From Pseudogymnoascus verrucosus (taxonomy: Eukaryota), in the NCBI GenBank assembly GCA_001662655.1, contig KV460231.1: a stretch of 64,000 nt of DNA. One strand, 5' to 3'. Numbering within the stretch: position 1 is the stretch's first letter; each line of letters opens with the position of its first letter. The notes under the pieces are model-generated. The model saw only the letters and a program-made list of their open reading frames with translations. It was not told the origin of the DNA and made no database searches. Shown in pieces: positions 1 through 49,964 of the stretch. Position numbers and translations under genes: made by a program.

Positions 1-22
1 CCCTAACCCTAACCCTAACCCT
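1..22. repeat. Telomeric repeat (CCCTAA)n, left chromosome end
   Basis: Window opens with ccctaaccctaaccctaaccct, the complement of the canonical TTAGGG telomere. Confidence 0.95.
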
Positions 23-1301
23 CTCCACGCTTTATAAGCCTATGTTGGCATAGCACATCTGGCACAGCGTTCAAGGGGCTCCCGTCTATGTTAGTACCTG
101 CTAATAGGGTGGTGACCTGTGGTAGTGAGCAGCAGGCGTGCTGTAGGGAGCTAGGTTGCTCATGAGCCTGTGTATGCTCCTCCTCTCGCTCCTGGTGCTG
201 CTCTTCTGTACACCCATGGAACTGCCATAGCTGCCGCGCCACCTGCACTGCAGTTGGTAGAGGCATCTCGCCATCTTGTGCTTGTGGGCCCTAGTGGAGT
301 ATCGTTAGAGACTCTGTATGACTAACATGGTTCTAGGTATTACTACTGCTAACACTACTACTACTATTGACGCTTATGCTAGCGCTAGCGCCACTGCTAA
401 TAACAGGAGATTGCTTAGCAGGCGTAGTAGCTTGAGGAGGTGTGCTTAGCATCTCCTGTAGCTAGTTAGTAATGGCAGCCTGCTTTGGGATAAGTGGTAG
501 AGACTGCCGCTTCCTCTTAGTACCACTCCCTTATGAGCTGGCAATTGACTGCGCGTAGACGATAGATTTTCTAGCGTCTGTCTGTAGACGTTAGGACATC
601 TCACTTAGTATCTGACTTTGGACCTTAGACTCCTCATCACCTTGAACATTCCACGACATCTCGTCCTCGTCATGTACACTTGCTTGTCTTGTAGTCGTAT
701 CCTTCTCTATAGTAGTTGAGGCTATACCTTTAACGGTCGCTTTAGTAGTGGTTGTAGCTTTAGGAGTGGCTTTGGCGGTGGCACTAGCACAAGGGTTAGC
801 AGTAGAACTCATAATAGACAATAGTAGTAAGTAGCTCTCTATCCTGGCTCACCTACTAATCGACTGCCTCTCTGTCGTTTCCTCACCTTCCTGTCGTAGT
901 GCTTGTAGTATAATTGCTGCCTCGCGCTCTTCATTGACCTCATCTTGTACATTAAGTCTCTAGACTACCTCCTCAACCTCTCTCTCCTCTGTTTGTGGCA
1001 GGCGCGCTAGCGCTGGCACCACCTATAGCTGCTAAGGCTGCAGCTAGCCTTGTGATATAACAATGCCTTGCTTAACTGTCGGTTGTATGTCATCTAGTGT
1101 TAGTAGGTTAAGGTTGCTCCGTATGCCAGTAGCTAGGCTTGTTAGAGGAGGTGCATCCTACTGTGCTGGATTGTAGAGGATGAACTAGGCGTTCTAAGAC
1201 GAGGATTGCTGTTAGCGCCGTTAGTAAGTTATACGATTGCTAGCTAATTTAGCTGCTGCTGCATCTTGAGAATTGTGGTATTTCCTTAGTCGGCCAACCA
1301 T
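23..1301 (-). pseudogene. RIP-decayed ~425-codon hypothetical ORF truncated by the telomere
   Basis: ATG at 1301 (MVGRLRKY...) is in frame with ORF-track pieces 591..821 and 15..266. Internal stops are mostly TAG/TAA at likely Gln/Trp codons. The frame runs into the telomere repeat. Confidence 0.65.
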
Positions 1302-1410
1302 TTTTAATAGGAAGAGGAAGGAATAGGTGATAAGTAATAGTTGTAATGGCGCTAGGGCTAGCACTAGCACTAGCACGTATAGTTGGAATAATTGAGGGGT
1401 TAGAAGTAAG

Positions 1411-1507
1411 GAAATAATACTAATTAGGAATAGCTTAGTTCTACATTAGGAAACAATCCTAATTAGGTATCACGTCTCGCTTAAATGTAGAAATAATCCT
1501 AATTAGG
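1411..1507. repeat. Three 18-bp repeats (gaaayaatmctaattagg) at ~40-bp spacing, with palindromic core CCTAATTAGG
   Basis: Copies at 1411-1428, 1450-1467 and 1490-1507. Confidence 0.75.
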
Positions 1508-1710
1508 TTTAGTAGTGGTGCACGCGCCACTGCTACCGCCACCGCCTGCCTAATTAAGCGACAATACTCATGCTTCTGCCACCTAACCCTCACCCTATGT
1601 AACGGCCATTGAGTAGCGTGGGTTTATTCCCGTTAGTGTACATGCTCATCTGCGTCTGCAAGCAGCCTGCTGTAGTACTGGCAATGGTACTGTGAATGGT
1701 TACAAACCGT

Positions 1711-2066
1711 CTACATGGCTCCGTTTAGAGTATCGACAGTCCACCTAAGTCTTAGAATCTCCTGTGCTAATGCCGTATTTGTGTGCTAAAGAGCCTAAAC
1801 ATTTGACCTTAATTGAAGATCACGCGCTACAAACCCATCTAACTAAGATCAAAGCTGTTAGGCGGTTTGCTAATGCTTAGTTTTCTTAACAATGAGGGCG
1901 TTAGCTATGTGTTGCAGATCTGTAGTAACGGCAACGTTTTCGTTAGTCATAACAGGAGTTTTCGGCTGTTTAAAGTCCATTAGATCTGGCTACAGCATAG
2001 TTAGTAAGCTAGATAGTAAGAAGTAAAGAAAGTAAAAGCTTTTACCATAGTCGTGATTGTCTCCAT
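1711..2066 (-). pseudogene. Possible small RIP-decayed coiled-coil gene
   Basis: METITTM, then a GT..ctaac..AG intron, then a frame (DLQHIANAL...TALAQEILRLR) broken mostly by RIP-type stops. Confidence 0.3.
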
Positions 2067-2832
2067 AGCTAAGATCAACTTGTAGCTAAAGTAAATGTGA
2101 GAAATTTTTACTCTTAACTTGCTATCCTAAGCTAATGGACAATAAGTTATCCTCTCTTAGTGAACCCTATAGGGGTAACTTAATGGCAGTAGCATGTATA
2201 TGGCCCTCGTAATCCTAATGGTAGGTAATTTGTTAGTGCATTACAATCCTAATGCTAACTAGGCCTATGTAGGCAATTAGTTGTATTTCTAACTAACTTG
2301 CTATTTACTGTATACCTTGAAGATTCCATAACGCTAGTTGTAAACATATGCCTAATTCCTAGGCTGTGATGTTCACTGTCATAAACGTAGGAATATGTCC
2401 CTTAAATTTTGGTTTTCGAGGGAGACATTTAATAAATACTAAAATAAGTTAAATCGGATAAAATACGACAGTCCATTAGCTAAGAAGCATGGACCTATTA
2501 AACTTGACATAGTTAAGGTCTACTAGAAGAATGCGCCTACCTACTAGAGACTAGATTCTATTACGCTTCCTATGTACGAGCGTTATCATAAGAGAAACAA
2601 TGAAAGGCAACAGTTAAATGAGCATCGTAGTAGTTAAGCAAATTATGTTCTTAGGCTGTCCTTACATTTGCTATAGGGAGCTTATAATGCTTTACTAGCT
2701 AGATTAGGCAACTTCCCTTATTAGCTCTCACTTCCTAATATATATTATGCAACATTAAGTAACAACTTTATATTTAATAGTGAAGTATTTAATTCATAAT
2801 AGCTACCTAAAAGTGGGTGACCCTTAGCAAGA

Positions 2833-2902
2833 AGGTGGCCTGTAAGATGTAGGTTGCCTATAAGATGTAGGTGGCCTATAAGAAGTAGGTGGCCTATAAG
2901 AT
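2833..2902 (+). repeat. 18-bp tandem repeat, ~4 copies (aggtggcctataagatgt)
   Basis: Copies start at 2833, 2851, 2869 and 2887. Confidence 0.85.
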
Positions 2903-2997
2903 TCACGTCTAGCTCCTAAAAAGAGATATAAAGAATCGGTACACCTTCTTAACTAGTGTTATAAGGCTAGTTCTAAGATAACCTCCTATTCATTAAA

Positions 2998-3445
2998 ATG
3001 TCCATAGGTTTTAGGCAACCTAAGCAGCCTATTAGCTTCGGCTCGAATCGTCTAGAGGGGTTTAATAGCTTTTCCTAGCCAACTTCTACCCACTTAGTTT
3101 CTAAACAAAAACATTATATTATAGAAATAGAAGAGTCTAAAGCAATAGTAGCTAGCCTTATGAAGATAGAGCAAATTATTGCTAATTAGCGTTAAAACTT
3201 AAAGAATTTTAGGATAACTAAGGATCTTGAGACTGAAAAAAAATATATTAAAAACATTAAGATCTATATGGATCTTGTTAAGGAAAATATTAAGAAAAAG
3301 GCCTATAAAAATCACGCTAAGTTTCAATCTATCTTAGATAAAATAGGTAGCTTTGTCACGGGTGGCTAAGGGCAAAGCAACAAGGCAAGGTGGCAGGAGA
3401 AGCAACTAAGTAGACAAACCATTAGTAACTTATTTTAAAGTTAAT
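2998..3445 (+). pseudogene. RIP-decayed hypothetical ORF ending at the left TIR of element 1
   Basis: ATG at 2998; Lys/Glu-rich helical frame with TAG/TAA interruptions up to the TIR. Confidence 0.3.
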
Positions 3446-3928
3446 TAACGTGCATCCCTACATTAAGGGACGCACCCCGTGACGGGACAAATATTAGTAC
3501 TTTGAATTTAGTTGATTCTAAATTTGTTGAATCCATTGAAAATTCTAGTATTTTTGTGTTAGTTATGTTATGTAACTACTCTTAAACAGCCTAAACCCTA
3601 GCTACTCTAAAATTTACGATCGCGTCGTCGCCATCGCGCCTAATTGCGGATAGTGTCAATTTAAAGTATAATAGAACCCCTTAACCTACAGCACTACCAC
3701 GAGCTCTTTAAACCTTTCAAACTAACATAACACTTTAATTTAGGTTCCTGAGTCTTACTACAATGCTATAAAATCATCTTAGCCTTGTAGTGACTAGGGA
3801 ATGCTGTGTTATGCGACGTCTCCACATAGGTTGGTACCTCTAGATTAAGCGATTAAGGAGCTTGTAGCTGCTAAGCTGTGGCTGTATATGGCGGCCTATG
3901 AAGCCTTACTATAAAATTCCGTGCCCCG
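3446..3928 (+). repeat. Left TIR of element 1 (family copy A)
   Basis: Aligns with 8151-8632 (direct) and with 6852-7301 and 13698-14179 (inverted). Confidence 0.9.
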
Positions 3929-4137
3929 ATCATTTATGCATTTAAGCGGCCACACTAGAAGCAACATGGGTTATGCAACCATGCCTAAAGTCTGCCCTTT
4001 AGGCGCTAAAGTCAGCCTTTTGAGGCTAAGTGCAGACAACATGCTTTATCGTCTAGTACGACAAACCTGTCTTTCACTCCCACTCTCTAGCATTCTTTCT
4101 TCACTTCATGTAGGATAATAGGCAAGCCAACTTCATC

Positions 4138-6765
4138 ATGAGCTTTGGATTTAGCGTGGGCGACTTCATAACTGCAATCGAGCTTGCGAACAAGATCTAG
4201 AAGGAATTCGTAGATGCGCTAAGTCAATTCAAGGATATCTCAGATGAGTGCGTTATTTAATAAGAATTCGATCTCTGCTGACTATTATATCCAAATAGGA
4301 TTAGAAGTCTCTCGATCGTCCTATAAGATGCCGACGTTGCCTTTCTAGAACAAGAGCTTAACACCGACTAGAAAAGACACTTAGAAGACATCGACAAAGG
4401 TTGCCGAAATGTTCTCTACGAGCTACAACGAATACTAGACAAAAATAGCGAACTCAGTTCTAAAAGTGGGAGTGTCGGCAAGAGAATCAAAAGAGGGTGG
4501 AAGAGGCTTAACTAGAAGCCGGAAGACATCGACGAGCTTCGGAGTCGTATCAGTACAAACATTAATTTATTGAACGCGTTCAACGGACGACTTACTCGAG
4601 ACAACGTGGTTAAGTTAGTACGGCACCAAGAAGATGAAGAACATCAAACAGCAGTCGACTGGCTCACCCCAATTGACTTCGACTTCGCTACTCAACAGAG
4701 CAACTTCATTAGTCGGCGGCTCTCCGATAACGCTTCTCCGAAATTGCAGAGTCACTTAGACAACCTCGGAAGCAAAGTCGGGATTCAATCCCAAAATACA
4801 GCGGCGCTCAAAGACCTTGATGAGCATGATGAGAGCATATCTGACTTGGAAACTCAACCCAGATTGCAAACTCTCGAAGGCTCTTCCGAGTATGAGCCTT
4901 CTGAGGCTTCTATGGAAGACGGCAGCGTTTTTTCGCTGTCTCAAAGCATCTCTTCGAAGAGCTCTGCACACGGTGCAGAGGGAGCAACTTGTGAACTTGT
5001 CATACTTTTGATGGAGAATACGGAACTGCGCAATTTCCATCCACCCCTACGCCAGAACTTCGAAATTACCGCTTTCAAATCCGAGCTGCATCAGTTACTT
5101 AAAGTATTCTCAAAGGACCTCTCAAAAGAAGCATTGATTCCAATTGAAAAAGAAAGTGTTCGCTTTGTCAGCCAACTAAGGCGACGGGTGACGCATACTA
5201 TTGGGCAAGAAGTCTTCGGCTTGAAAGATCAGTCCTTGCTCCAGTCAATCAGTCAACAGCAACAGCTAGACGCAAGAGAGAGGATTGAGAAATTCTTGAA
5301 GGATCTAATCCAGTCAAAGGGCAGCGGTGATGAATTGTCATTACAGCATGAGCATACGTCAGATAACGATAGCTCTGACGATGAATACGAATTGGAACCT
5401 TTTTCTAATTTTGAACTTGTGAAGAAGTTTCTCATCAACAGCAAAGCCTTTGAAAAGTTGCGAGTCAGCATCAGTAAGTTAGAAGCGCAAGGGGAAGAGT
5501 CAAATACAGAGATGCGGTCTCGCCACAACGTGATCGAGTTGGAGAGCAAGATTGGGAAGGACGAAAAGCTGTCAGATATAGGGGTTAATCAAAGCCCATT
5601 GAGCAGAACGGTGATACCAGAGTCGCGAACAATTCTCCAAGCTGGAAGAATAAATGTTTTCGCCACGCTACTGCGATGTTCTCGGACTTTGCTTCGCCTC
5701 TCCCGTCCCAAGCTGGAAATTGGATATCGGCGACTGGAATGGCAATGTGATTGTGGTATGCCACTCTATGGTGACTTCAGAGGTGACCCTGAAGAAATTA
5801 GCAAGCTCGTTAGAGAGATTCAAGCTCACGGATATGCCGTTACACAGACTTGTCACGGAACAAAACAAATGCCAGCGGATTCGGGATGGACCACTGCCTC
5901 AAACTCGGCTGTATCTGTACCCCTAGGATTAAACACATCTCAAACAACACAGAACTCCTGTCTTAATTCCACTGGCACTTCGTCTAGAGCACTTGGAGAG
6001 ACACGAAATCCAACGGTTGGTAGTACAGTCGCCACAACATCTCTGACACCAGTTACGGATAATAGGTCAAAATTCGTAGCGCTATGCGTGAACACAGGTC
6101 CATTCCAAAAGACATACGATGAGATTGATATATCTTCCACTCCCAAAAACACCCAAATGTTTCAGGACTTCAAAAAGACGTACGAAGCATGCGTCGGCTC
6201 CCGGAGGAACCTACTAAGAAGATGGCTCACGAAGCCTATAGACATCGAATTCATTCAATTCGCAGTGGAAGGCCTCAGGCGTGTCTACCCCATCCCTGGG
6301 TCACCTGATTGTACGATCTGTGCTCACGCAGAGAAGAAGGATAGACTTGTCGCCGCACGCAAATACGAGCCTCATCTCAATGCTGTAGCTCTAACCCATC
6401 CACCTATTCCCCCAGATCTATTCTTTCACTTGTGGGAGTGTCCGGAACACATAACTCCTACAGTGCAGAATTTGTGGCTTAATCGTCTGCCAAAAAAGCT
6501 AGATGAGAAGCTTGACAAGGTGTGTCTGGGGACACGACCAGATGGCGAGCTGATTCTTGGGTGGGGAGTACTTGTGATTGAGGGTCTGCATAGACGGAGA
6601 ATATTACGATTGACTATCGCTATTGTGGCGTTGAGCATGGTCATCTCGGTGGCCTATTCGGCTGGTATGAAAGATGTGTCCAGTGGGTTTGCAATTGGTG
6701 CTCTTCTTGTAGGATGTTGGACCTTATTTATAGCTGCACTATACTCCGAGTGGATGGCACGATGA
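4138..6765 (+). pseudogene. Chimeric gene: fungal STAND N-terminal (SesA/HeLo-like) domain fused to an uncharacterised WxCxCG domain with two C-terminal TM helices; 5' exons RIP-damaged, 4570-6765 open
   Basis: MSFGFSVGDFITAIELANKI start at 4138 and intron ~4248-4298. TAG stops occur only in the part duplicated at 8840-9340. The open 731-aa frame contains RRLEWQCDCG, PPIPPDLFFHLW, LNRLPKK, GWGVLVIE and two hydrophobic helices. Confidence 0.75.
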
Positions 6766-6851
6766 TCCAAAAATCAGGGGTACTTATTGTTGGTTATGGC
6801 TACAATGAGGGCTGATAGCATGTTCACCCTGTCAGTGAGTGAAGATAAAGC

Positions 6852-7301
6852 AGGCCACCACACACAGCCACACCTTTATTGCCACGTGACCAGGAATCTT
6901 CGCTTAATTTAGAGCCAACCCATACGACGACGTCGCATGACACAGCACTCCCTAGTCACCACATGGCTGAAAATGATTTTTCAGCATCATGGTGAGACGG
7001 GAGCCCAGATCAAAAAGTTATATGATTTTGAAAGGTGCAAAGAGCTCGTGGTGGTGCTGTAGGTCGAAGGGCTCTATTATGCTTCGAATTGACGCCCTCT
7101 GCAATTAGGCGCAACGGCGACGACGTAATCGTAAATTTCATAGTAGCTGCGGTTTAGACTGTTTGGGAGTAGTCATACAACATGGCTAACACAAAAACAC
7201 TAGAATTTTCAATGGATTTAGAAATTTATAATCAATTGTATTTAAAGTACTAATATTTATCCCGTCACGGAGTGCGTCCCTCAATGCAGGGATGCACGTT
7301 A
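6852..7301 (-). repeat. Right TIR of element 1 (family copy C)
   Basis: Reverse complement aligns with 3446-3897. Confidence 0.9.
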
Positions 7302-7854
7302 GGCGTGTCCACACTGCTATTGCCTCGTCGACTCGCTTAGAACTCTCGTATATGATGCTAATCCATCTAGCGAAGTCTTTAGCTTCATCCCACTTTTTGC
7401 TACTAAGAAAGCTGTCGTGAATACTATGATAGAAAGCAAAGACGGTTTCCACGTGGTTGGGAAACCAATCTAAAGATTCTAGGAACTTAGAAAGCCGGGT
7501 GTCGTGCAACTTCTAAACATCTTTAAGAGAAACTTCCGCCTAGTTTTTTATGAGTATGATGATTAGTCGATAATGCCTAAGGGCTGCTTGTCGTGAGTTG
7601 CGAGATACCTAAAGAAGAGGAGGGATGAAGTATTCGGCCTCTAAGTAGCAGCATGGTATAAATCGAGGTTCGAAATAAGCAAAATCCCATATGTAGAACT
7701 GCAACTTAGCTGGCAACTATAGGAATAACAAGAATTGAGAGGGTATCATCTCATTATATGTATTTAATAGCACTTTAATGACGGTAGGGACAAAGCGATT
7801 TATAAAGCAGGCTGAAACGCTATCGAGAGACTGTAAGTTAGAGAGCTTTATCAT
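7302..7854 (-). pseudogene. 2EXR-domain protein pseudogene, 3' end cut by TIR copy C
   Basis: ATG at 7854. The frame reads FLLFL*LPAKLQFYIWDFAYFEPR...PPLL*VSRNSRQAALRHY (2EXR-like LPxExRxxIW and ESRxxAL pattern), is in frame with ORF 7186..7509, and hits the TIR at 7301. Confidence 0.6.
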
Positions 7855-8150
7855 GAGTAGTGTAGAAAATGAGGTGACCTAGCGTCATATCGAAGTCACT
7901 AGACTGTTTGCTTGCAAAACTTAAGCTTAAAGATGTAACTTAGAATTGACAATAATCGGCTAGATCTACAATGCTAATTTGCACAAGTGTCTAGTAATGG
8001 ACCCTACATACCGAGGGAGGTACAGAGAGAGGTAAGAACTAAGAGAGGTAGAATTACAGCTCACCCTAAGACTAGCTTTCCCTCTACCTCCCCCTCCTAA
8101 CCTTCTTCTAAAACCTGCTAGAGTCAGCTCTCGTGTAGCGTAATAGGAGA

Positions 8151-8632
8151 TAACGTGCATCCCTACATCAAGGGACGCACCTCGTAACGGGACAAATATT
8201 AGTACTTTAAATTCAATTGATTCTAAATTAGTGAATCCATTGAAAATTCTAGTATTTTTGTGTTAGTCATGTTGTGTGACTACTCCTAAACAGCCTAAAC
8301 CCTAGCTACTCTAAAATTTACGATCACGTCGTCGCCGTCGCGCCTGATTGCGGAGGGCGTCAATTTGAAGTATAATAGAACCCCTCGATCTACACTACCA
8401 CCACGAGCTTTTTGCACCTTTCAAACTTATATAACACTTTGATTTAAGTTCCTAAGTCTTACCACGATGCTAAAAAATCATTTTTAGCCTTGTAGTGACT
8501 AGGGAGTGCTATGTCATGCGACGTCTCCACATGGGTTGGTACCTCTAGATTAAGCGATCAAGGAGCTTGTGGCTGCTGAGCTGTAGCTGTGTGTGGCGGC
8601 CTCCGAAGCCTTGCTATGGGGTTCCGTGCCCC
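8151..8632 (+). repeat. Left TIR of element 2 (family copy B)
   Basis: Inverted match to 13698-14179, ending at GTTCCGTGCCCC. Confidence 0.9.
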
Positions 8633-8839
8633 GATCATTCATACATTCGAGCGGCCACACTAGAAGCAGCATGGGTTATGCAACCATGCTAGAAGTCTGC
8701 CCTTTAGGCGCTAAAGTCAGCCTTTTAAGGCTGAGCGCAGACAACATGCTTCGTCGCCTAGTCCGACAAATTCTCTAACTCCCACATTCTGTCATCCTTT
8801 CTTCCCTTCATGTAGGATAATGGGCAAGCTAACTTCATC

Positions 8840-11800
8840 ATGAGCTTTAGATTTAGTGTCGGCGATTTTATTTTAGTAATCTAGCTCGCGAATAAAATAC
8901 AGAAAGAATTCGTTAACGCGCCGAGTCAATTCAAGGCTGTCTTAGACGAGTACGTTGTATATAGAGGAGTTCGATCTTCGCCTACAATTACGTTTAAAAT
9001 AGGCTCTAAACGCTCTCTATCGTCCTTTAAGATGCTGACGTTGCCTTCTTAAAACAAGACCTTAATGATGACTAGAAGAGAGACTTAGAAGACATCGACA
9101 AAGGATGCTAAAATGTCCTTAACGACTTACAACGAATACTAGACAAACATACTGAATTTAATTCTAAAAGTGGGAGTGTCGGCAAGAGAATTAAAAGAGT
9201 GTGGAAGAGGCTTAAGTGGGATCTAGAAGACATTAACAAACTTTAGAGTCGTATTAGTACAAATATTGGTTTCCTCAACGCGTTCAACGGGCTACTTACT
9301 CGAGATAACGTGGTTAAGTTAGTACGGCACCAAGAAGATCAAGACCGCCAAACTGTCCTTGACTAGATCACCCTAGTCGATTATGCTCCCTAGCTAAACG
9401 ACTTTCTTACTCGGCGACAGGAGGGAACCGGGCAGTGGCTTCTAGACTCAACAGAGTACTAAACATGGGTAGAGACAAAGAAGCAGAGGTTATTTTGTCT
9501 AGGAATTCCTAGGGCGGGGAAGACAATTCTCACCTCAATTGTGGTAGAAGAACTTACTACTCGCTTTCAAAATAATAAGAGCATAGGTATTGCGTACCTC
9601 TATTGCAACTTCTAGCGACAGCACGAGCAGAAGGCTGAGGATCTACTCGCAAGTCTGCTGAAGCAGTTAAATCAAGGTCGGTCGTCTCTGCTAGACACTA
9701 TTAAATCTCTCTATGATAGCCATTAAGTCAAGCGGACGCAGCTATCATTTGAGGAAATCTCAAGAGCTCTTCAGTTAGTAGCTACCATGTACTCGAGAGT
9801 CTTTATTGTCATCGATGCTCTTGATGAGTGCTAAGTATCTTATAACTGCTAGAAAAGATTCCTGTTAGAGTTGTTTAGCCTCTAGGCTAAATGCGGAGCG
9901 AATCTCCTTGCAACTTCGAGATTTATTCTAGAAATCACCGAATATTTTCAGGGAAGCATATTATTAGAAATACGAGCTAGTGAACATGATGTGCAGAGGT
10001 ATGTAGAGGGCCATATGGCATATCTACCATCCTTTGTCGGACGTAGTCTAGATTTGCGAGAGGATGTCAAGACTGGTATCATAAAGGCTGTTGACGGCAT
10101 GTATGTGGTTCTTATTGTAATTATCTACACAAGGACTTACTTTGCCTAGGTTCTTACTTGCTCAGCTTCACCTAGATTCCTTGATCAGGAAGAGATCACT
10201 AAAGGCTGTCTAAGCTGCTCTTAAAAATTTGCCTTCTGGTTCCAATGCGTATGACCATGCGTATAAGGATGCAATGATTCGAATTAAAGGACAAGTAACC
10301 GACTAGGAGGACCTTGCTAAGCAGGTCCTATCATGGATAACCTGTGTAGAAAGACCATTAACTACAATAGAACTTCAGTAGGCACTTGCTATGGAAGTAG
10401 GCGAGTCTGAATTAGACGAAGACAATCTCCTAGAAATTGAAGATATGGTTTCTGTGTGCGCGGGATTAGTTACCATTGATGGGGAGAGTAACACCATCCG
10501 CTTAGTTCATTATACAACACAGGAATACTTCGAGCGAACGCAAAGCCATTGGTTCCCGAATGCGAAGACTGATATCACGACTATCTGTATCAGCTACCTC
10601 TCATTTGATGTTTTTGAGCGTGGGTTTTGTCAAACGGACGACGAATTTAAGGAGCAGTTGCAGTCAAATCATTTTTTTGAGTACGCCGCACGAAACTAGG
10701 GCCACCATGCTCGCATGGCTTCGAGTTTTAGCTAAGCATTGAGCTAGACGGTTGTTAATATTCTTACAAGCAAAGCTAAGGTTGATGCATTGAGCCAAGG
10801 GTTATTTGCTACCAAAAGCTATTCATTAGACTGGAATTACAGCTAGAAATTCCGGAAGAAAATGACTAGACTGCATTTAGTAGCATACTTTGGGGTTATG
10901 ACAGTCATCAACCTACTGCTTAATACAGGTAAGGTCAATGCCGACTCTAAGGATGAAGATGGCTGAACGCCACTATTCTGGGCTGCATAGAACGGGCATA
11001 AGGCCGTCGTCATGCTGCTGCTTGATACAGGCAAGGTCGACGCCGATTCTAAGGATAGACATGGTGAGACGCCGCTATTCTAGGCTGCACGGAACAGGCA
11101 CGAGATCGTTGTTAAGCTGCTGCTCGATATAGGCAAAGTCGATGCCGACTCTAAGGACAGATATGGTCAGACGCCACTATACTTAGCTGCACGGAATGGG
11201 CATGAGGCCGTCGTCAAGCTACTACTTAATATAGGCAAGGTCGATGCCGACTCTAAGGACGGAGATGGTTAGACGCCACTATTCTTAGCTGCACGGAACG
11301 GGCACGAGGCTGTCGTCAAGCTACTGCTTAATACAGGCAAAGTTGACGCTGATTCTAAGGACGGAGATCGTAAGACGCCGTTATTATCGGCTGCATAGAA
11401 TGGGCACAAGGTCATTGTTAAGCTACTGCTTGATATAGGCAAGGTTAATGCTGACTCTAAGGATGAAGATGGCCGAACGCCACTATTCTAGGCTGCATAG
11501 AACGGGCATAGGGCCGTCGTCATGCTGCTTCTTGATATAGGCAAGGTCGACGCCGACTCTAAGGATAGACATGGTAAGACGCCGCTATTCTAGGCTGCAC
11601 GGAACGGGCACGAGGCTGTCTTCAAGCAACTGCTTGATATAGGCAAGGTTAATACCGACTCTAAGGATACAGATGGTGAGACGCCGCTATTCTAGGCTGC
11701 ACGGAACGGGCATAAGGCCATCGTCATGCTGCTGCTCGATACAGGCAAGGTTGACGCCGACCCTAAGGACAGATATGGCCGGACGCCACTATACTAGGCT

Positions 11801-12454
11801 GCACGGAACAGGCACGAGGCTGTATTTAAGCTGCTGCTTGATATAGGCAAGGTCGATGCCGACTCTAAGGATAGATTTAGCTGGACGCCACTATACTGGG
11901 CTGCACGGAATAGGCACGAGATCGTTGTTAAGCTGCTGCTCGATATAGGCAAAGTCGATGCCGATTCTAAGGACAGATATGGCTAGACGCCGCTGTTCTA
12001 GGCTGCACGGACTAAGCACGAGATCGTTGTCAAGCTGCTGCTTAGTACAGGCAAAGTCGATGCTGATTCCAAGGACAGAGTTGGTTAGACGCTACTATTT
12101 TGGGCTGCACGGGACGGGCACGAGGCTGTCATCAACCTACTGCTTAATACAGGTAAGGTCAATGCCGACTCTAAGGATGAAGATGGCCGAACGCCACTAT
12201 TCTAGGCTGCACGGGACGGGCATAAGGCCGTCGTTAAGCTGCTGCTCGATATAGGCAAGGTCGACGCCGATTCTAAGGATAGACATGGTGAGACGCCGCT
12301 AATCTGTGCTGCATAGAAGGGGCATGAGGCTGTCGTTAAGCTACTGCTCAATATAGGCAAGGTCTATGCCGACTCTAAGGACAGAGATGGCTAGGCACCG
12401 CTGTTATTAGCTGCTAAGAACGGGCACGACTTGGTCATGCGGCAACTTGAGTAA
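8840..12454 (+). pseudogene. NLR-like gene: SesA/HeLo-like N-terminus, NACHT (GPI-deacylase-type winged helix), ~15-16 ankyrin repeats; inactivated by RIP
   Basis: MSFRFSVGDF start; GTGQWLL; Walker A GIPRAGKT (likely GIPGAGKT before RIP, ~9503-9526); Walker [31 protein letters not shown]...[12 protein letters not shown]; ankyrin TPLxxAAxNGH repeats; introns ~8950-9002 and ~10102-10149; many TAG/TAA stops. Confidence 0.9.
10935..12430 (+). repeat. Tandem array of 15 highly similar 102-bp (34-aa) ankyrin-coding repeats
   Basis: The motif gay-tct-aag-gay recurs every 102 bp from ~10943 to ~12371. Confidence 0.9.
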
Positions 12455-13697
12455 TCGCAAGACTCACTATCATGAAATAATGACCAAATTACCTCCCCCC
12501 TACCCACCTCTGTTATAGCTAGCCTCCTTTAATACTCATTTTAGTGCCGCAGTTTATACATACCATTGAATTATAAATGCTTTGAAATCAGTAGGTCACA
12601 AAACGAATGACGATATGGCAAATAAGCCCGCCACCCATATTCCTAGGGTGGAGGTGATCGGATATTCAATTTTCTAGTGCAGCTGCGAGGTCACGCCTTT
12701 ACCTCATGTGTTGTGGTTTGTGTTAGGGTGGAGGTACGGTACGGTACGATGCTGTGCTGTGCTATTGCAAATGCAAAACCGACTTTTTTCATATATATCC
12801 CACGTATCAAGGCAGTTCCGCTTCGAGCGCTAGATAGTGAAAGACGTATCTATACGATATTTGCAGTATCATGTCCATCCTTGCGCTGCACAGGTCAGCG
12901 TTGCCTAAGTCGGCGTCGCTGTTCGTTAGGTAGTTAGTCGGAAGGATTAGATAACTCGGTAGGGACATCGATGTTGTTAGCGGTGTCGAGTGGCTCCGTC
13001 GTAAGCATCGCTTGGTAGTTTTGGTCAGACGTGTCGAGTGCGGTGGTGGAGGTGCTAATTGTGGATTCCGAAGTTTCTGCAACCGGTTAGAAATGGGTAT
13101 TAGGAAGAGCTGCGTGAGAAAAGTGTAGCATAAGCCATTTGGGCTGACCAACTCGCTCGCTGGCTGTAAGACTTGTGTCAGGCACAGTCCTGATCAACTA
13201 TACACAGCCAAATAATGTCAGAAGCGAGTGTACATCGTAAGAATTGGGGGTGGTTTACGCTAACTAAAAATCGCTAGTCGCTTTGCCTGTAGGTATTAAT
13301 TCGCGTGTCAGCCATGCATGAATTTGCGCCTTGTAGCAGCCACACGGTTGATGACGATCTCCCGCGTGGTTGTGAGAGCTTAGAGCTCAGGTACAATTCC
13401 TTTACATGTTTTGGGAATAGTAAGAGCTTGATGGTGGAGCTGTGGTGGAGGAACCCTGTTACGCGATAAAAGCAGACCCTCTGCAAATCTGCCATGAGGG
13501 CGATGACGCAAACATAATGTTCTAGAAGAGGGATCTGGGGTGTTCGGGGTGGCTAGAATACGATGTGAGCAAAATTATAGGAGATGTTGATATGCATATC
13601 TCTCAAGCAAAGGAGAAAGCGGCCGATTTGGCAGATATTGGCCACTTTTTGCTCCAGTTTGAGAGGGCAACTTAAAGTCCAATTCGGAGTATATCAG

Positions 13698-14179
13698 GGG
13701 GCACGGAACCCCACAGCAAGGCTTCGCAGGCCGCCACACACAGCCACAGCTCAGCAGCCACAAGCTCCTTGATCGCTTAATTTGGAGGTATCAACCCATG
13801 TGGCAACGTCGTATGACACAGCACTCCCTGGTCACCACAATGCTGAAAAATCATTTTCAGCTTTGTGGTGAGGCTCGGAAACCCAGATCAAAGTATTATA
13901 TGAGTTTGAAAGGCACAAAGAAGCTGGTGGTGGTGCTGCAGGTCGAGGGGTTCTATTATGTTTCAATTGACGCCCTCCTCAATTAGGCGCAACGGCCACG
14001 GCGTGATTGTAAATTATAAAGTAGCTGGGGCTTGGACTGTTCAGGAGTGGTTATACAACACGACTGTCACAAAAATACTGGAATTTTCAATGGATTCACA
14101 AATTTAGGATCAATTGAATTCAAAGTACCAGTATTTGTCCCGTTACGAGGTGCGTCCCTCGATGCAGGGATGCACGTTA
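13698..14179 (-). repeat. Right TIR of element 2 (family copy D, least RIP-mutated)
   Basis: Reverse complement aligns with 8151-8632 and retains CpA/TpG sites that are TpA in copies A and B. Confidence 0.9.
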
Positions 14180-14630
14180 ACTCTAAATTTGTAAATCCAT
14201 TAAATGTTTTCTATATTTTTGTGTTAACGCATGCATTGTGGCTGACTAGAAATATCAGAAGACTTCGATAGCGATGATATAGTACCCATCATTTCTTCAG
14301 GCACTATTATTCTGAATACTTATTCTTTACCCTAAATTGAAGTATCCTCTGCTAGATAATAAGGCACATGTATCTTGGGGGCAGAAGCCGTCAACTCTCA
14401 GGGACTTTCGAACGCCAGCCTAAACCTGACCAAAGTGATCAGACGCACGGCCAGCGATCTGACATATCAGCAGCTGGTCAAGTCTTTCGGTAGCATCCTT
14501 AGGCATCTCGCCAACAACATCTTGCAGGTCGCGGCAAACCCTCTTCCATTACATCACCCATCGAAGAATATCCATTGAAATATCAACAACACTTGTGCCT
14601 ATACTAGATTTGCACACCAACCGTAAAGCG

Positions 14631-17600
14631 CTAAAAATTCCACTGTTTCATCCAGATCGCCATCCACTGCGGCCCAACTACTTCTAATGCTTCCAAACTA
14701 TTGCTTGCAGCCACAGCTTGCCGCACGTCTAGTCGTGCAATACTCCCCGACCTCGTCGTGCTTTGCCTATGGTGAAATTCTACTAGAGTGAGCGCCGGGT
14801 TCCTTGTGACACGGAGGGCCGGATCTGTTGCGGAGGCCTGCAGGGCGTCTATCCATACCGTAAAGGGCACAATTTGGATGTTTGTCTGCCCTCGATTGAG
14901 ATGAGCCTGCACGGTTGGGAGAAGGGTCTTCCAGCTTGTGATGCGTGGATTCAGGACATGGTAAACCCGCGGTTTGACAGGCGGCTTGGTCTCAGAGGCT
15001 CCTACCAACTCGACTATGATTTTCGAAAGAACGTCAACGGGAATCCAATCCACCGTGTCAATGGCACCAAGGGTCTCGGGGAGCAAGCCAAGGTACTTGG
15101 AGCTGGACACTAAACTCGGGAGCCATTCTCGCTTGTTCCACACGCCCTGTTCCTGAGTCGGTCCAGCGATTTGGCCAACGCGGATCACAGTTACGGGGAC
15201 AGCGGATCTCGCACTTGCGAGATCCAGCAGGCGCTCTGCAACGTGCTTTGACTCACAATATCCAAGGGGGGTAGCGGCACTGTAGTCATAGATGATTTCC
15301 TCGGGGACCTTGCCAGTATGATTTTCAAGCCAATTGGTGACAGTGGAAGCGCTAGAGATGAAGTAGAAGTTTGCTGCCTTCTTAGACGCGACGCTAAGAT
15401 CAATTAAGTGCCGCACGCCACGGATATGAACATCGAAAGACTCAATCGATGATACGAAGTCGACTTGCCACGCGTTATGAATAATGTGCGTTGCGGACGA
15501 CAGCAGCAATCCGTACTCATTTGCTGTCAGTCCCAGCTCACGCTCACCCAGGTTGACCTGGTAAAATTCTACGCGGTCGGCAGCGAGGTTGGTGGTCAAT
15601 CCACGCCCCGTGTTGATGTCGACCTGCCGTTGGTGACTACAAACAGATCGATTGAGGCATATGACCTTACCCACCTTGGGATGCGCGAGCAAGGATTCTA
15701 GTAGATGAGAGCCCAGGGATCCAGTAGATCCGGTTAGAATGACGCTCCATGTATCATCCTGCACAGGTGAATGCCGAGCGACTGGCAGATCCATCGAATA
15801 TTTTTCAACCAGTGCTCGCATCTTCTGCGCCCGAGACTCCTCCACTAGGTTTTCCGAGTGGCCAACACGACCTGGGTTGAACTGGATGCCTTCAATGGCT
15901 TCGATGCCTTCGCCTTCTAATATAATCGCACTGAGCAACTGGGACTTCAATGCAACCCTGCGCGATAGTACGAGGAGGGAAGCGTTTCCAAGGATCTCGA
16001 ACAACGGCACATCCGCCTTCATCTCGCGCAACATCCAGTTGCGAAGCTCGACTGCGACGAGTGAGTCCACACCATATGCTGCTATTGGACGGTCTGAGTT
16101 GATATCGTCCCTTGGTATCATGAGAGATTTGGACAGCTTAGCTATGATCGCCTCGCATACGATCTGTGACGCCTCGGAGGTAGTTTTGGCTCTCTCCAGG
16201 GAATGGCGAACGCTTACGGCTGTATCAGTGGGTTCGCCCAGCAGCGTGGCCGACCTGGGGAGGAGATGAGAGAATTTGGGATCTCGAAACCAGAAAGGGA
16301 TATCACCAGTGGGCGCGGTCTGGCCAAGCTTCGAATCTAGTATTTCGCGCGTATACAGTCCGGTGACGATCTGACAAGCCTGATCTCCGCCAGATCGAGT
16401 GATTGCAGATTGCAGTATGGCCATTAGTTCCTCCACGTGGATGTCGGCATAGCCTTGCCTCTTTAGGCTTGTCCGAGCCCCTTCATTCTCGGACACGAAC
16501 CCCGCCCCTACGATGACGCCAAGGTCCAGAGTAACTGCAGGAAGCCCTTGTGCGGTCCGGTAATGTGAAAGGGCATCTTGGAAGGAGGATGCCGCCGCAT
16601 AGTTGCTTTGGCCAGGGTTGCCCGATACGCTGACGGCAGAGGCAAGCATCACAAAAAAATCGAGCTCCGACTTGGAAAGTTGTTCGTGGAGATTCCAGGA
16701 ACCTTGGACTTTGGGACGAAGAACTCGCTCGTAGTCTTCGACTCCCATCTTCTCATACAGGGTATCCTACCTAGTGTTAGTTAAACCGCGATAGTGGATA
16801 GGGAAGAGCGCACCTTCAAAACCATGGCGCACTGTATAACGCCACGGATTGCAGGCATTCGCCTGGCGATTTCCTCCAAAGCTTTCGCCAACTGTGCTTC
16901 ACTACTGACATCGCAGTTATAGGTTGCGACGTTCACCCCTCCTTCCTCGAGGTCCCTCACAATCTGCCTCGCGCTCTCTTTATCCAGACCACTGCGAGAG
17001 AGAAATATGATGTTCTTCGCGCCGTGCTGCATCATCCAACGAGCAATCGCTCTCCCGAGACCACCCAGTCCACCCACGAGCAGGTAGGAAGCATCGTCTC
17101 GGAAATATGGCTGGACTACAGCTCGTGGTATAACCTAGATAGTCAGTCAGATTCTCATTTGGAAGTGGGATATTATACCTTGACTTGATCCTCTGCCTTT
17201 GGTATCACGACTATCTTCCCGGTATGCTTCCCCGATTGCATCAGACGGAAAGCAGCCTCAATTTCCGACATGGAGAATACAGTGATTGGCGTGATTGGGC
17301 TCAGCACCTTTCCCCGGAACATTTTCATGATTTCAGACAAGGTCTTGGCTCCGTGAGACATCCTGTGGTAGAAGATGGCCTCCAAATCAATCGAGGCAAA
17401 CGTCACATGGCGCATAAACGGCGCCATTTCCAGGCGACTGTTTGCAATCATATCACGCTTACCGATTTCAACGAACCTACCAAACATGGCCACGCAGTGC
17501 CATGTTTGTCGAAGGGCCTCGCCAGCCAGGGAGTTTAAAATAACGTCGACGCCCCTGTTGTGGGTCATCCTCATGATCCCGGCGGCGAAGGAGGTGTCTC

Positions 17601-20600
17601 GACTCGAGAAGATATGGTCGCCAGGAATACCGTATTGTTCCATGAGGAACTTCTTCTTGTTCGCCGTGCCCACAGTGACAAATATCTCAGCGCCGATCAA
17701 GCGAGAGAGCGCAATGGCAGCTTGGCCAACACCTCCTGCAGCACTGTGGATCAAGACCGACTCCCCTCTCTGGAGACCGGCGGTGTCATACAACGAGATG
17801 TAGGCTGTACAGTACGCAACGGGTATCGATGCAGCCTCCTCAAACGTCATATCATCAGGTATTCGCTGGACGACGGCTCCAGCGGTGCGGAGAGAGTTGC
17901 TAAATGCACCACCTGCCCAAGCACACACTCGATCACCCACGATGAAGCCTGCGACGTTCTTTCCAAGCCGAGTGAGGACGCCGCTGCACTCGCAGCCTAA
18001 AGGCTCTTCTGTAATCTGGCCCATGGAGATCATGATATCGTGAAAGTTGAGACCGCACGCTCGTATCTCAATCTCCACCTCATCGTCTGGCAATGGAGGA
18101 GCCATTGTTGGATTATCCACAAACCTGAGCGTATCCAAGAGGCCGGGTTTTTCGATCTCCAAGCGGAGAAAACGGTTCGGTTGTTGGAAAGGTTGGATTT
18201 CAGCGCTTAACTGCCTAGTAGCGGCCATGACAGACTTGTTCATAGAGATATCCTCCAGGACACGGGGAATGAAGATGGCCCCATCCCTCTCAGCAAACTC
18301 AACGTCACAAATCTGCTCCTCGGCGTTGAGATCGAATGCTGATCTGAAGACGTCAAGAATGACCTGCGCAGCTCCTTGCTCATCTAGCTGTCTCTGGGCA
18401 TCAAGATCAAGAGTGACAAACTTCGAAGCTTGGCTCTCACACCTCAGCGCACGTGCCAGTCCGGTGATAAGACTGACGGCTGGTGTCTCGCAGAGAACAG
18501 TACCACCACGAGACAGCCACAATACACCTCTGGCTGTTGAGAAGATACCCTTGATGTGGTCAAATTGGTCGGGTTGAGGTTGCCTCAACAGCGGCGTATG
18601 CAGCTCGCCCAGAAAAATGCAGACTTTGCCATCTCCCTGAGCATCTTCCAATGAGGAAACGGCAATACACTCCCCGGTTAAGCTTTCAAGGGATGCCCTG
18701 AGAGCATCGAGAGACACTCCCACCGGCGATCCATCGTGAACTATTAGAGCTGCGGGGTATCTCGGCTCGTGGCCATCAGTGGCTGTTGACGCTATCAGGC
18801 TCGTCAGATGATCCTGCTCGCTAGGATAGTCCCATACGCAAACATCCAGACCAGTGAAGCCTTGTCGCTGAAGCAAAGTCCCCCAACTATCTTCAGACAG
18901 AGTAGGGCCCATCTTTCGGCACTCTTCTGTACCTAAAGGGATGGTCAGAGTTGAGGAGAATACGAAGTGGTCATTTCTTACCTAACCACCAACCTGGCAG
19001 GGTCCCAAATACCACCGACGCACGTAGCAGGACGTGAGTAATCTCAAGGAGGATAATCTTTCCGTTTGGCTTAAGCAGCTTCCGGACATTCTTCATTGTG
19101 TTGTCCATATTCCGCGTTGCGTGCAGAACATTGGCGGCGATAACCAAGTCGTATTTGCCGTTCTCGAAACCTTGGGTGACAGGATCACACTCAATATTGA
19201 GCTTTTTGAAGCTGATCAAGCCCCCCCAGTCGGCGAACTTTTCCTGGGCCTTTTCAAAAAATCCGCTGGAGATGTCAGTAAAGTCGTAATGGATGAAGCG
19301 GGCGCTTTTGCCACTATAACCTCCAAGTGTTTGTAGGACTGGCAGTGTGCCACCCCCTGTGCCCGCCCCTATCTCTAGAATACTCATGTTCGGCCGCTTG
19401 TGGGCTAGCTTGTCGACGTAGCTGGCTACTTGGATAGAGTAGCGGTCTGCACCGATGGCTTTACCATAAAACTCGTGGAGAAGGTCATCCTCGAGCATCA
19501 ATTCCAGAGGCTGGATTTCTCTCCTCAGGATCCGAGCCAGGCTTCCACCTACTCGACAGAGCAGCTGACCGTCGACACTTGAAGCCTGTGCCACACTCAA
19601 GGTCTCTTTTCTCTGTTCGAGCCCAGCTGCTAAGCCAAGCGCAGTTACGTGCTTGAGCCCTCCCTCAGTCGCCAGCTTGCACTGGTATTTCATCCAATTG
19701 TAGTAGAGCTGATGATGTGCCTCCATACTCTGGTAATCCGCATCCGTGAGGACTTCCAAGGCATCTTGCATGTAGTAAACAGACGCGAGTTCAAGATTGG
19801 AGATGGTGGCCGAATCAGTTGGATCTTGTTCTGCGCCCCACAGCCTCTTAGCGGTCTCGCGCTTGATTGAGTCGACGTCCGGCTCCCAACATAGCTTGAA
19901 GCAGAGTCTTCTAGCTTCCTCCTGGTCGACAGGGTTGGTATTTCTAAGAAATACGCAGGTCAAGCCCTTTATCTCAATAACGGGCTTCGAATTCAGCTCC
20001 GAGGCATCCACGACACCAATCGTAGCCTTGACTTCGCGAGCGCCATTGCGAGATGCAGACGCATGCACGAGGAATCTGTGTCCAGGAGAGTTGTTGATAT
20101 CTCGGGAGATGAAGAGCTCCCCAATGAATGTTGGCAACACGGGATCCTGCAGCTGAGCATTCCCTCGTGTCAATGCGGGGAAGATAGCTTGAAAAACTGC
20201 ATCGAGAGTTGCAGGATGCACCACGTGGGGATATTCAAAGCGGTGAGGCATGACGGCGCTCGTGTCAGGAATTGACACGGTACAGAGAGCTTGGTGAGGA
20301 CCTTGTCGGATGTTGACGAAATTTCGAAACGTATCTCCGAACTGGACCCCTGCGGACTCGAGCGATTCGTAGACGTTCCCGATATCGACGCTCTCTGTAC
20401 AAAGTGACACAGCATTTGCGAATCTCAGCTGACTCGAAGTCTCTGCCTCCTCCGCCTGTCGACCCCCATCGACTTCTGTGGGCTGTGAGGCGATCTCAGT
20501 CAAAATGAAGCCTCGGCAATGCTCACTCCACCCTTCCTGTCCATTGTGTGAGAAGACGCGAAACTCCTGCCACGTCTCTAAGGAGCTGAGATTATTGTCG

Positions 20601-23600: not shown

Positions 23601-24213
23601 GCTTCATAGGCGCACTCTAGCTGCATCCTCTGCTGAGGATCCATTGCCTGATATCATAAGTAGTGGTCATGCCAACATCACAGCATATATCTCACCTTCG
23701 CCTCGTTTGGACTAACGTTGAAGAACTGAGCATCGAAACGAGAGAGATCTTGCTTAAGAAAATAGCCACCCCGGGTGTTCATCTACAGGTCAAGAGTCAG
23801 AGTGGCAAGCGAGGAATCTGATGGTAGGGCCATACGACACCGTTTCTATCTATATTCGGATGATAGAACGCGCTCGCATTAAACCTATCCGCAGGAAATT
23901 CGGACCAAGCATCCCGAGCCTCTGAGCAGAGCTCCCAGAGTTTCTCAGGGCTTGTAGCATCACCCGGAAAACGGCAGCTCATACCGATGATGGCAATGGG
24001 CGTCCGTGCATCCTTGACACTACTATCAATGAGGCTCATGGGGACAGTACTAAGTCTATCCGGTCCTCCATCAAAATCATTGACGGGAGAGGTAGATGCT
24101 GATATGCTACTGGCATGGCTATTCGCCCCTCCTCCAGAGCTAGCTATCTCGTGCGTCTTGAAGGAAAGGCAGTCAGCCGCGCCAACGTGTTTCGGTTCAG
24201 TTGAACGTTGCAT
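14631..24213 (-). CDS. Highly reducing iterative type I polyketide synthase with C-terminal thioester reductase (KS-AT-DH-cMT-ER-KR-ACP-R), ~10 exons
   Basis: [60 protein letters not shown]. c[78 protein letters not shown] pieces are joined by ~9 GT-AG introns (e.g. 23835-23783, 23695-23648, 23589-23542, 23207-23152). No premature stops seen. Confidence 0.95.
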
Positions 24214-46406: not shown

Positions 46407-46795
46407 ATTAAATTGGGTTGTTTTTAAGTATATCCTGTTATCTAGTGTTATGTGGTATGGATTTATTAGCTCATTAGAGTACTGTATTCGTCACGCCATA
46501 GAGGAAAGCGACGACGGGTAGTAGGTGGAACCGATAGATGATGACAAGAGCATGGACCGGAAAGTTACATCGGAGCATTATCCTTGCACTGAGCTTTACT
46601 AAAAGCAGGAAAGCCCCACGGTAGTAATAATGGGGGGCGATATTTCACAAGACTGTGTGTAGGAAAGCCGGTTCTGTGCGGTATGTTACTGACGATGATG
46701 TCTGCGAGTCACGATGAGAGTGGTCATAAAGATTTTTTAAACTCCTTAATTATTGCAAGGTAATAGCAATTGAGAGACAGTTAGAGTCTAAACTA

Positions 46796-49315: not shown

Positions 49316-49964
49316 GTCGCTGCAGAAGATAGCGTGTATTAGTGGCAGTTTGTGAGGTCAAATTATGGCGTTTAGGCTGGGAGGAGATTATGCTCGACGT
49401 TGTGCTCGATATTCCAAGAAGCGTATATTCCTTTGGATCTGCAGATATCGCCTATAACAACCCGATCCTCTGGCCGTGTTGGCTAGAGGATAGTTCTGGA
49501 TGAGCTGGGCCCTACACTGATCTAAGAGTCGGACTTGGCTAGTGATACGCAGGTCCTTCGAATACATAATAGTAAGATATGAGTAAAAGAGTGAAAGGTA
49601 AAGACGGCAGAGAAAAGACAGTAAAGTGAAGTAAACCAGAAGGTTGCTTGAAAGCACTGAGCTAACAGAGCGAGTAAGGAGTGCGAGCGTAAGTGTGAGA
49701 TGGTAAGATTATATACATTTTCTGTCACAGCAGGTCACGAAGTAGGTTGCGTGGGTTACTTTGCCTTGTTATTTTTACCTAGAAAATCGGCCCTCACATT
49801 TCGGGGGGCAACCAATTTCGCGATTGTGATTGTAGTTGTCCTTAAGGCGGCAAGCCAAATTTATGTTAGCGTGGAGTTAGCGTAGGTAACCGAGCGGAGA
49901 GGCCGCATAAAGCAGCGGGCAAATGCCGCCATAAACAGTTGCCAAATCGCCAACATGTAGTGTA

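Follow-up and report, generated by a model that had tools for sequence, protein, structure and literature searches.

Candidate decayed TA-flanked elements with long terminal inverted repeats enclosing NLR-related genes in a subtelomere of Pseudogymnoascus verrucosus

Can a small transposon be the vehicle in which single fungal NOD-like receptor (NLR) genes are copied and moved? The question is raised by a 64,000-nucleotide stretch of Pseudogymnoascus verrucosus DNA (assembly GCA_001662655.1, contig KV460231.1; hereafter the window), near the start of which four copies of a long repeat bracket two genes. Fungal NLR repertoires turn over rapidly, recombine their domains freely and are statistically associated with transposable elements (TEs), and the physical vehicle is seldom seen. 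We propose, with a probability of about 0.6, that the two bracketed units, named E1 and E2, are decayed non-autonomous members of a low-copy class II family with terminal inverted repeats (TIRs) that inserts at TA, each carrying one gene of the STAND family (signal transduction ATPases with numerous domains).

The repeat copies were called by BLASTN of two of them, A and D, against the window. Exactly four (A to D) were detected in the 64 kb, with E-values of 1e-106 to 1e-180 and identities of 80-89%, and no further copy was found there. They form two inward-facing pairs. E1 (3446..7301, + strand, 3,856 bp) is bounded by TIR A and TIR B, and E2 (8151..14179, + strand, 6,029 bp) by TIR C and TIR D; the elements have TA at both ends and lie in the same orientation, 849 bp apart. 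According to a four-way alignment the repeat spans ~452-467 bp in B and ~487 bp in the other three copies. TIR A occupies 3446..3932 (+; 3446-3930 by BLASTN), TIR B 6850..7301 (-; ~452 bp), TIR C 8151..8637 (+; 8151-8635 by BLASTN) and TIR D 13698..14179 (-). The outer end reads TAACGTGCATCCCT in all four copies, i.e. TA followed by ACGTGCATCCCT, and this exact 12-mer has four occurrences in the window, all of them at the termini. The 30 nt beyond each end are mutually unrelated, and the homology stops at the same base in 4/4 copies. At the left, the likeness of the two elements extends far beyond the TIR, as 1,227 bp (3446-4669 in E1, 8151-9373 in E2) are shared with 84% identity. The start codons lie 692 bp (E1, 4138) and 689 bp (E2, 8840) from the left end. 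The earlier note, made from the sequence alone, had described two inward-facing pairs of one repeat with a common terminus, each enclosing a gene with an NLR-type 5' end whose ATG lies ~690 bp from the left end, and BLASTN and alignment bore out this anatomy for both elements.

Close to the terminus lies a palindrome, GTGCATCCCT-6 nt-AGGGACGCAC, at 3450..3475, 7272-7297, 8155-8180 and 14150-14175, with stems that are constant among the four copies and loops that are not; its hairpin scores range from z -1.2 to -3.1 relative to shuffled sequences. An internal palindrome of ~40 bp, ~300-345 nt from each terminus (6956..7003, and in D at ~13832-13871), is strong, with z-scores of -4.2 and -6.3 relative to shuffles. 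Internal copies of the terminal motif, of the inverted repeat-direct repeat (IR-DR) type, were not found at up to three mismatches, the hairpin partner excepted; at this tolerance the window holds 54 matches to the motif versus 41.6 expected.

To place the repeat beyond the window, contigs of four runs (X1 to X4) were compared with positions 2400-15400 at >=80% likeness. Contigs only were counted, and summed depth is not to be read as copy number. X1, which holds 96% of the sampled words with 100% matches, probably comes from the source strain and is thus not independent, whereas X2 is a soil metagenome; stretches of X2 and X3 that no listed contig covered were not used as evidence. One 4,084-nt contig of X1 matches both kinds of end on the same strand: its positions 88-216 correspond to a left end (window 8151-8278) and its positions 3709-4084 to a right end (window 6861-7228), and the 3,492 letters that separate them are unlike the window. 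It is therefore a third inward-facing pair with a different interior, and its right end matches TIR B best. At position 8294, a letter other than that of the window appears in five X1 contigs in addition to the window's letter, so that at least six contigs cover a position for which the window could supply at most four copies. Eight X2 contigs break off exactly at 14179, with flanks that agree at only 0.49. Together, the third pair and these break-offs indicate a dispersed repeat family whose terminus is fixed. Up to 23 X2 contigs lie over single TIR positions, the gene parts being covered by fewer, and most family members in the soil sample do not obviously carry these genes. Only one contig was obtained from X4, on the ankyrin repeats alone. 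The summed depth of the X1 contigs was 415-600 over 4570-6739 compared to 212-255 in the flanks, as depth and not as copy number.

The excess of soil X2 contigs matching the TIR over those matching gene parts is what would be expected if the 487-bp unit were a solo dispersed repeat, akin to a miniature inverted-repeat transposable element (MITE) or a short interspersed nuclear element (SINE), that had inserted four times independently around two related genes. One 2,676-nt X3 contig points the same way, as its only match is to an inner part of the TIR (8212-8542), flanked on either side by unlike sequence. However, both pairs face inward with the terminus outermost, as does the third pair, and the left copies run on in the same register into 740 bp of shared gene sequence. 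Furthermore, the inner end of the 487-bp unit has no inverted copy of the outer terminus, so that the unit is not itself a small TIR element. Four solo insertions are thus very unlikely.

The type of element suggested by the ends was then considered from the flanking sequences, with flank k-mers of 1-12 compared after shifting the element start by 0, 2 or 3 bases and allowing transitions. With the first two bases taken as flank, TA was the only match common to both elements for k = 1-12, in keeping with the earlier claim that TA stands at all four ends and that no longer target-site duplication (TSD) is visible. The four-base flanks are TTAA, TTAG, ATAA and TTAA. Several groups of transposons were rejected on these grounds: Mutator-like elements (MULEs), as no flank match of 9-11 bp was found even with transitions allowed; hAT, as no 8-bp TSD appeared in the k-mer comparison; piggyBac/Kolobok, as the flanks are not TTAA throughout and the host codon at the right end of E1 accounts for its TAG; and PIF/Harbinger, which would leave a 3-bp TWA direct duplication, as TAA on the left is followed by TTA on the right of the same strand.

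The right flank of E1 was informative as to the origin of the TA. The 849-bp spacer is the 5' two-thirds of a 2EXR gene on the minus strand, a relic of the family (7300..7749, -; PF20150, 2.5e-8) that is cut after about codon 150 of ~220, precisely where E1 ends on the right. All four orthologs found (P0039-P0042, 213-221 aa) align to 7749-7300 with 77-83% identity and then continue for ~70 more residues. The last codon of the alignment, Leu CTA, is made up of flank base 7302 and the TA at 7300-7301, and this TA is therefore host sequence. The left flank of E1 is heavily RIP-like subtelomeric DNA (RIP, repeat-induced point mutation) without similarity to the spacer. A 240-nt X3 contig aligns to 7299-7463 and then continues with 75 nt unlike the TIR, the letters of which were not read; it is compatible with an uninterrupted allele.

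These flanks also bear on an alternative without any transposition, in which an NLR locus was duplicated locally, as a segment or in inverted form, within an unstable subtelomere. The window opens with a telomere repeat, (CCCTAA)3.5 at positions 1-22, which places E1 3.4 kb from the chromosome end and makes the locus subtelomeric. Such a setting would suit a duplication, as would the adjacency and common orientation of E1 and E2, the close relationship of A and C, which are the most similar pair of TIRs, and the rearranged flanks of E1. On the other hand, sensitive BLASTN revealed no homology of the left flank of A to that of C, or of either flank to the rest of the window, and a transition-blind alignment scored 151 against a null maximum of 182. 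The homology moreover stops at the same base at four ends, and copies occur in other contexts. We regard a duplication without transposition as very unlikely.

The gene enclosed by E2 is an NLR pseudogene (8840..12448, +) that encodes an N-terminal domain, NPHP3_N/NACHT, a winged helix and ankyrin repeats. It consists of three exons (8840-8947, 8983-10110 and 10151-12448), and with the stops read as X, Pfam identified NPHP3_N (1.3e-32), WHD (2.2e-13) and Ank (2.7e-102) in one continuous frame per exon. E2 thus has the build of a fungal NLR of the STAND type, i.e. an N-terminal domain, a nucleotide-binding oligomerization domain (NOD) and repeats. The assignment of its N-terminal domain to SesA rests on the ortholog P0036, with an E-value of 9.1e-6 exactly at the Pfam cut-off. 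P0036, VE03_08515 in its source record, is an intact 871-aa protein of another Pseudogymnoascus species, and tblastn aligned it to E2 with 85% identity over residues 64-439 and 77% over residues 437-869. The ankyrin repeats form a tandem array (10904..12390, +) of 102-bp (34-codon) units, with 14.6 copies and 79% matches. Homologs of the genes enclosed by both elements come almost all from Pseudogymnoascus (Leotiomycetes) species, with 66-96% identity.

The first 24 annotated residues of P0036 map by tblastn to 8686-8757 in E2 and 3981-4052 in E1, just inside the TIR. This part of the upstream region, at least, is thus conserved where the intact ortholog resides, which is the only hint that bears on the promoter role proposed for the TIR in the earlier note. 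No frameshift was found in the three segments of E2 that were read (8840-8947, 8983-10110 and 10151-12529), which contain 1 + 14 + 25 = 40 in-frame stops. Where they could be aligned, these stops lie opposite P0036 residues Gln (16), Arg (5), Trp (2), Leu (2), Ser (1) and His (1). Changes of CAA/CAG to TAA/TAG and of TGG to TAG/TGA are expected to yield stops at Gln and Trp codons. The remaining 3' region of E2 (12449..13697, +) is without recognisable coding sequence. A dispersed piece of ~175 bp (13312-13486) lies in this region; it shows loose contig ends on both sides and has no inverted repeats of its own, and position 13455 is matched by 4 contigs in X1, 18 in X2 and 6 in X3.

The gene enclosed by E1 is built differently. 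An upstream region of ~205 bp between TIR and ATG (3933..4137, +) is common to E2, and is followed by an N-terminal coding part (4138..4669, +) that starts with MSFGF, is of the SesA type by its relatives and contains one 51-nt in-frame intron. The first 194 codons (4138-4719) contain 7 stops, 3 of which lie inside the intron. E1 resembles E2 up to 4669, and from 4666 onward it resembles another protein family, that of P0001. The junction falls in the motif WLTPIDFDFATQQSNFISRR (4660..4719, +), which is common to both gene families: the NLR paralog P0026 has WLTPIDFATQQSDFISRR just before its NACHT domain, and the P0001 family has SLDFVPQQSDFISPR. From there, a C-terminal module (4666..6765, +) corresponds to residues 291-989 of P0001, with 77% identity over 4666-6762 and 0 stops in 699 codons, and its stop codon (6763-6765) lies ~85 bp from TIR B. 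E1 has no NOD and no repeats, and hence not the build of an NLR.

P0001 is a 989-aa hypothetical protein whose N-terminal 290 residues differ from those of E1, and the similar proteins P0002, P0003, P0004 and P0007 are from other named Pseudogymnoascus genomes. The module of ~600-700 aa belongs to no Pfam family, falls only in unnamed Ascomycota clusters and carries the motif RRLEWQCDCGMPLYGDF; it ends in two hydrophobic stretches that by eye look membrane-spanning. In other fungi it is fused to NACHT (P0010), T5orf172/MUG113 (P0009) or cold-shock domains (P0012-P0016), and in P0008 from Oculimacula a module of this type is joined to an MSFGF-type N-terminal domain and TPRs. It appears from these fusions to be an unnamed domain-shuffling partner. 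Judged by its sequence, E1 is thus a chimera, in which an E2-like left part of 1.2 kb is followed by a C-terminal module corresponding to that of a conserved but unrelated gene.

The two halves of E1 also differ in their TIRs. Distances based on transversions only, which are robust to RIP, were 0.014 per site for A-C, 0.031 for C-D, 0.033 for A-D, 0.045 for B-C, 0.047 for A-B and 0.060 for B-D, and TIR B, the outlier lineage, has 15 private transversions. With A-C at 0.014 and B-D at 0.060, the left ends are close relatives, whereas the right ends are of different lineages. E1 is most simply read as a recombinant: an E2-like copy would have supplied TIR A with the flank to its left, the upstream region and the N-terminal exons, and another family member or locus the C-terminal module, TIR B and the right flank, the two parts being joined at the linker motif. 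Such a structure could have arisen by ectopic exchange between two copies, or by an aberrant transposition using the ends of two elements. An unequal crossover leading to a tandem duplication was rejected as its origin, since no sequence is common to the left flanks of A and C.

The stops in both genes are accompanied by a RIP-like mutational bias. Between the shared left parts of E1 and E2, 137 transitions were counted versus 51 transversions, the largest classes being C/T before A and G/A after T. TIR A is the most RIP-like of the four copies, with 16 of its 27 private changes being CpA>TpA or TpG>TpA. The composite RIP index was +0.71 for the subtelomere, +0.66 for TIR A, +0.49 for the 2EXR relic, +0.45 for the 5' part of E2, +0.26 for TIR C and +0.11 for the NACHT region of E2; it was -0.36 for TIR B, which is not RIP-like, -0.51 to -0.89 for the E1 module, -0.69 for TIR D, the least RIP-like copy, and -0.6 to -0.75 for the adjacent polyketide synthase (PKS) gene. 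The RIP-like damage thus tracks the direct duplication of A and C, runs through the gene body of E2 and spares the unique module of E1. That the unique part of E2 was hit and that of E1 was not may reflect either a former second copy of the E2 gene body or a later arrival of the right half of E1. Both genes are dead in their shared parts.

A transposase was sought by Pfam in 9 + 24 + 54 open reading frames (ORFs) and in stop-read-through frames of 1-3446, 7302-8152, 12400-13703 and 46000-50501. This search returned only 2EXR, DUF3723, DUF3435 and SRF-TF, and there is no room for a transposase in E1 or E2. E1 and E2 are therefore without a recognisable transposase, as had been noted before.

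DUF3435 is the tyrosine recombinase domain of Starship captains. No such recombinase lies inside E1 or E2, and the one detected is a broken copy at ~47170-48530 (-), with matches of 8.9e-30 and 3.6e-20 in two frames; DUF3723 pieces were found at 31196-33195 (-). These relics sit in an AT-richer, RIP-like block between 24 and 51 kb. They raise the possibility that E1 and E2 belong to a decayed Starship-like region, whose tyrosine recombinase would have been responsible for any movement of the cassettes, the TIRs being older or incidental. A study of Starships lists SesA-NACHT-Ank NLRs, the build of E2, as conserved cargo together with DUF3723, and terms regions with DUF3435 and such genes but without TSDs 'Starship-like' (PMC9156397). 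The co-occurrence of the DUF3435 and DUF3723 relics with a SesA-NACHT-Ank NLR resembles this and fits a degraded region of that kind. However, the captain relic is >33 kb away, beyond an intact PKS gene, and no FRE genes, patatin genes or Starship boundaries, the last of which were not sought, came up in the scans. Unlike Starships, which measure tens to hundreds of kb, E1 and E2 have 4-6 kb and long TIRs. A Starship origin of the movement moreover leaves unexplained the identical termini, the TA flanks, the third pair and the soil contigs that end at the terminus, and we hold it to be unlikely. Residence in a Starship-like region and movement by ends of their own are compatible, and can both apply to E1 and E2.

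If E1 and E2 do belong to a TA-inserting TIR family, its members would move by cut-and-paste, would have TIRs of ~487 bp and would each hold one host-type gene with its upstream region. In E2 the cargo would be a whole SesA-NACHT-WHD-ankyrin NLR, and in E1 the TIR, upstream region and N-terminal domain of an E2-like element would have been combined with a C-terminal module and a right TIR that stem from another lineage. The crossover would have occurred within the short linker motif that normally precedes NACHT, and recombination at this site may exchange the interiors of elements. A transposase acting in trans would presumably drive the movement, most likely one of the IS630-Tc1-mariner/pogo type given the TA flanks. 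Copying of the gene-carrying unit may have exposed the shared parts to RIP, by which Gln, Trp and Arg codons would have been converted into stops.

Several observations weigh against this proposal. No DDE or other transposase domain was present in the scanned ORFs and read-through frames of the window. The two flanks of E1 are not contiguous, and the missing third of the 2EXR gene was found neither left of E1 (score 43 versus a shuffle maximum of 42) nor elsewhere in the window; with this remainder absent beyond E1, a simple insertion does not account for E1 as it stands. An empty site for E2 was not observed, nor was a second locus with a whole gene-carrying element seen among the contigs compared. 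At the three ends other than the right end of E1, the TA may still belong to the TIR. TIRs B and D are not RIP-like despite their 80-86% similarity to A and C. Finally, a search of Joint Genome Institute (JGI) metagenome contigs with the terminus pattern gave four loci, which are bacterial, have 57-69% GC and no BLAST similarity, and were rejected as chance matches. A protein search with an ORF from TIR D gave one weak match (E 6e-5) and was uninformative.

Among known systems, the nearest to E1 and E2 are cargo-carrying non-autonomous TIR elements. The Pack-MULEs of plants are flanked by TSDs of 9-11 bp, and their cargo usually consists of gene fragments. E1 and E2 differ from them in the TA flank and in that E2 holds a whole gene with its upstream region; like Pack-MULEs and other Pack-type elements, and like a hAT element that captured histone H3, they are non-autonomous TIR elements with a host-gene interior, among which chimeras occur. 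The new part of E1, unlike the filler captured by Pack-type elements, looks gained, along with a right TIR of foreign origin, by recombination within a motif common to both gene families. The earlier note had inferred a Pack-type mobile cassette family. This view stands insofar as the units are TIR-bounded, without transposase, of host-gene interior and dispersed, and fails as to independent captures, since the left 1.2 kb are common to E1 and E2. Likewise, NLR cargo was found in E2, whereas E1 has an NLR-type N-terminus on a non-NLR module. Cassettes that package immune genes at present are contradicted by the 40 stops in E2 and the 7 in the first 194 codons of E1, and a family dedicated to NLRs by the larger number of soil contigs matching the TIR than the gene parts.

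Members of the IS630-Tc1-mariner/pogo group (Fot1, impala/mimp, Tc3) resemble E1 and E2 in their TA flanks and in having non-autonomous derivatives that are mobilised in trans, and Tc3 has long TIRs of ~460 bp. E1 and E2, whose terminus is ACGTGCATCCC, differ from this group in the lack of a visible DDE/D transposase and in a gene-sized cargo, which is unusual for the group.

In fungi, one precedent is ToxhAT, a TIR-bounded element of 14.3 kb found in Bipolaris, Parastagonospora and Pyrenophora, in which the largest gene is of the Patatin-TPR type and belongs to the NLR family (PMC6737239). It is, like E1 and E2, a TIR-defined element of class II type with host-type cargo including an NLR-family gene, and is located in a transposon-rich region without a demonstrated active transposase of its own (PMC6737239). 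It differs in its 74-bp TIRs, the lack of a TSD, a nested element and eight ORFs including a hAT-like transposase gene (PMC6737239), whereas E1 and E2 have 487-bp TIRs, TA flanks, one gene each and sizes of 3.9 and 6.0 kb, and occur in a different fungal class. The histone H3 gene mentioned above was captured and amplified by a hAT element in Dothideomycetes, where the copies were inactivated by RIP (PMC6710886). An association of NLRs with TEs has also been described more generally. A 2026 study reports that NLRs with highly conserved repeats are enriched for flanking TEs, and suggests TEs as their movers (PMC13449251). NLRs with such high internal conservation (HIC), among them NWD/HET-E of Podospora, are like E2 in their near-identical tandem sensor repeats, RIP-like pseudogenes and TE association. 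The association given there is a statistical one with flanking TEs, whereas in E2 one NLR is enclosed precisely by the ends of one element.

No account of a single fungal NLR enclosed in a small TIR element was found in the literature, supplements not being covered, and nothing specific was found there on transposons of Pseudogymnoascus. The earlier statement that no described fungal family of this sort was recognised thus remains valid for this family and not for the kind, as ToxhAT and the NLR cargo of Starships are precedents. What is notable here within the known cargo-carrying non-autonomous TIR elements of fungi is the combination of long TIRs, TA flanks, a cargo of one gene and a chimera formed at a linker.

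If intact mobile relatives of E1 and E2 exist in other Pseudogymnoascus, NLR duplication and domain shuffling by a defined transposon would become directly testable. The present pair illustrates the cost of such a process, as the duplicated shared parts were destroyed by RIP-like mutation and the unique part of E1 stayed open. A bolder and, in our view, doubtful extension is that a long-TIR, TA-targeting family of Leotiomycetes is a dedicated vehicle for single STAND/NLR genes, swaps their downstream halves at the pre-NACHT linker and rides in Starships. NLR duplication and the transfer of N-terminal domains to new sensor or effector modules would then be the work of a single element family, and its cassettes, carried within Starships, would partly explain the recurrence of SesA-NACHT-Ank NLRs among Starship cargo.

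Positions 23-3445, between the telomere repeat and E1, are strongly RIP-like (composite +0.71) and without recognisable gene, and contain an 18-bp tandem repeat of 3.9 copies at 2833-2902. E2 is adjoined on the right by the PKS gene (14634-24258, -), which is intact, not RIP-like and encodes a highly reducing polyketide synthase with KS, AT, DH, MT, ER, KR, ACP and R (terminal reductase) domains. A second ankyrin region (43712-45576, +) consists of near-identical 99-bp units, with 96.9% over 256 bp at 44336-44690; it is broken by a 101-N assembly gap (44235-44335), contains in-frame stops and is not flanked by members of the TIR family. Further to the right, an amino-acid permease gene (51723-53285) lies left of an OrsD-family ORF (55449-55865, -) and of an intact ORF of 596 codons with a T5orf172/MUG113 domain (58301-60088, -).

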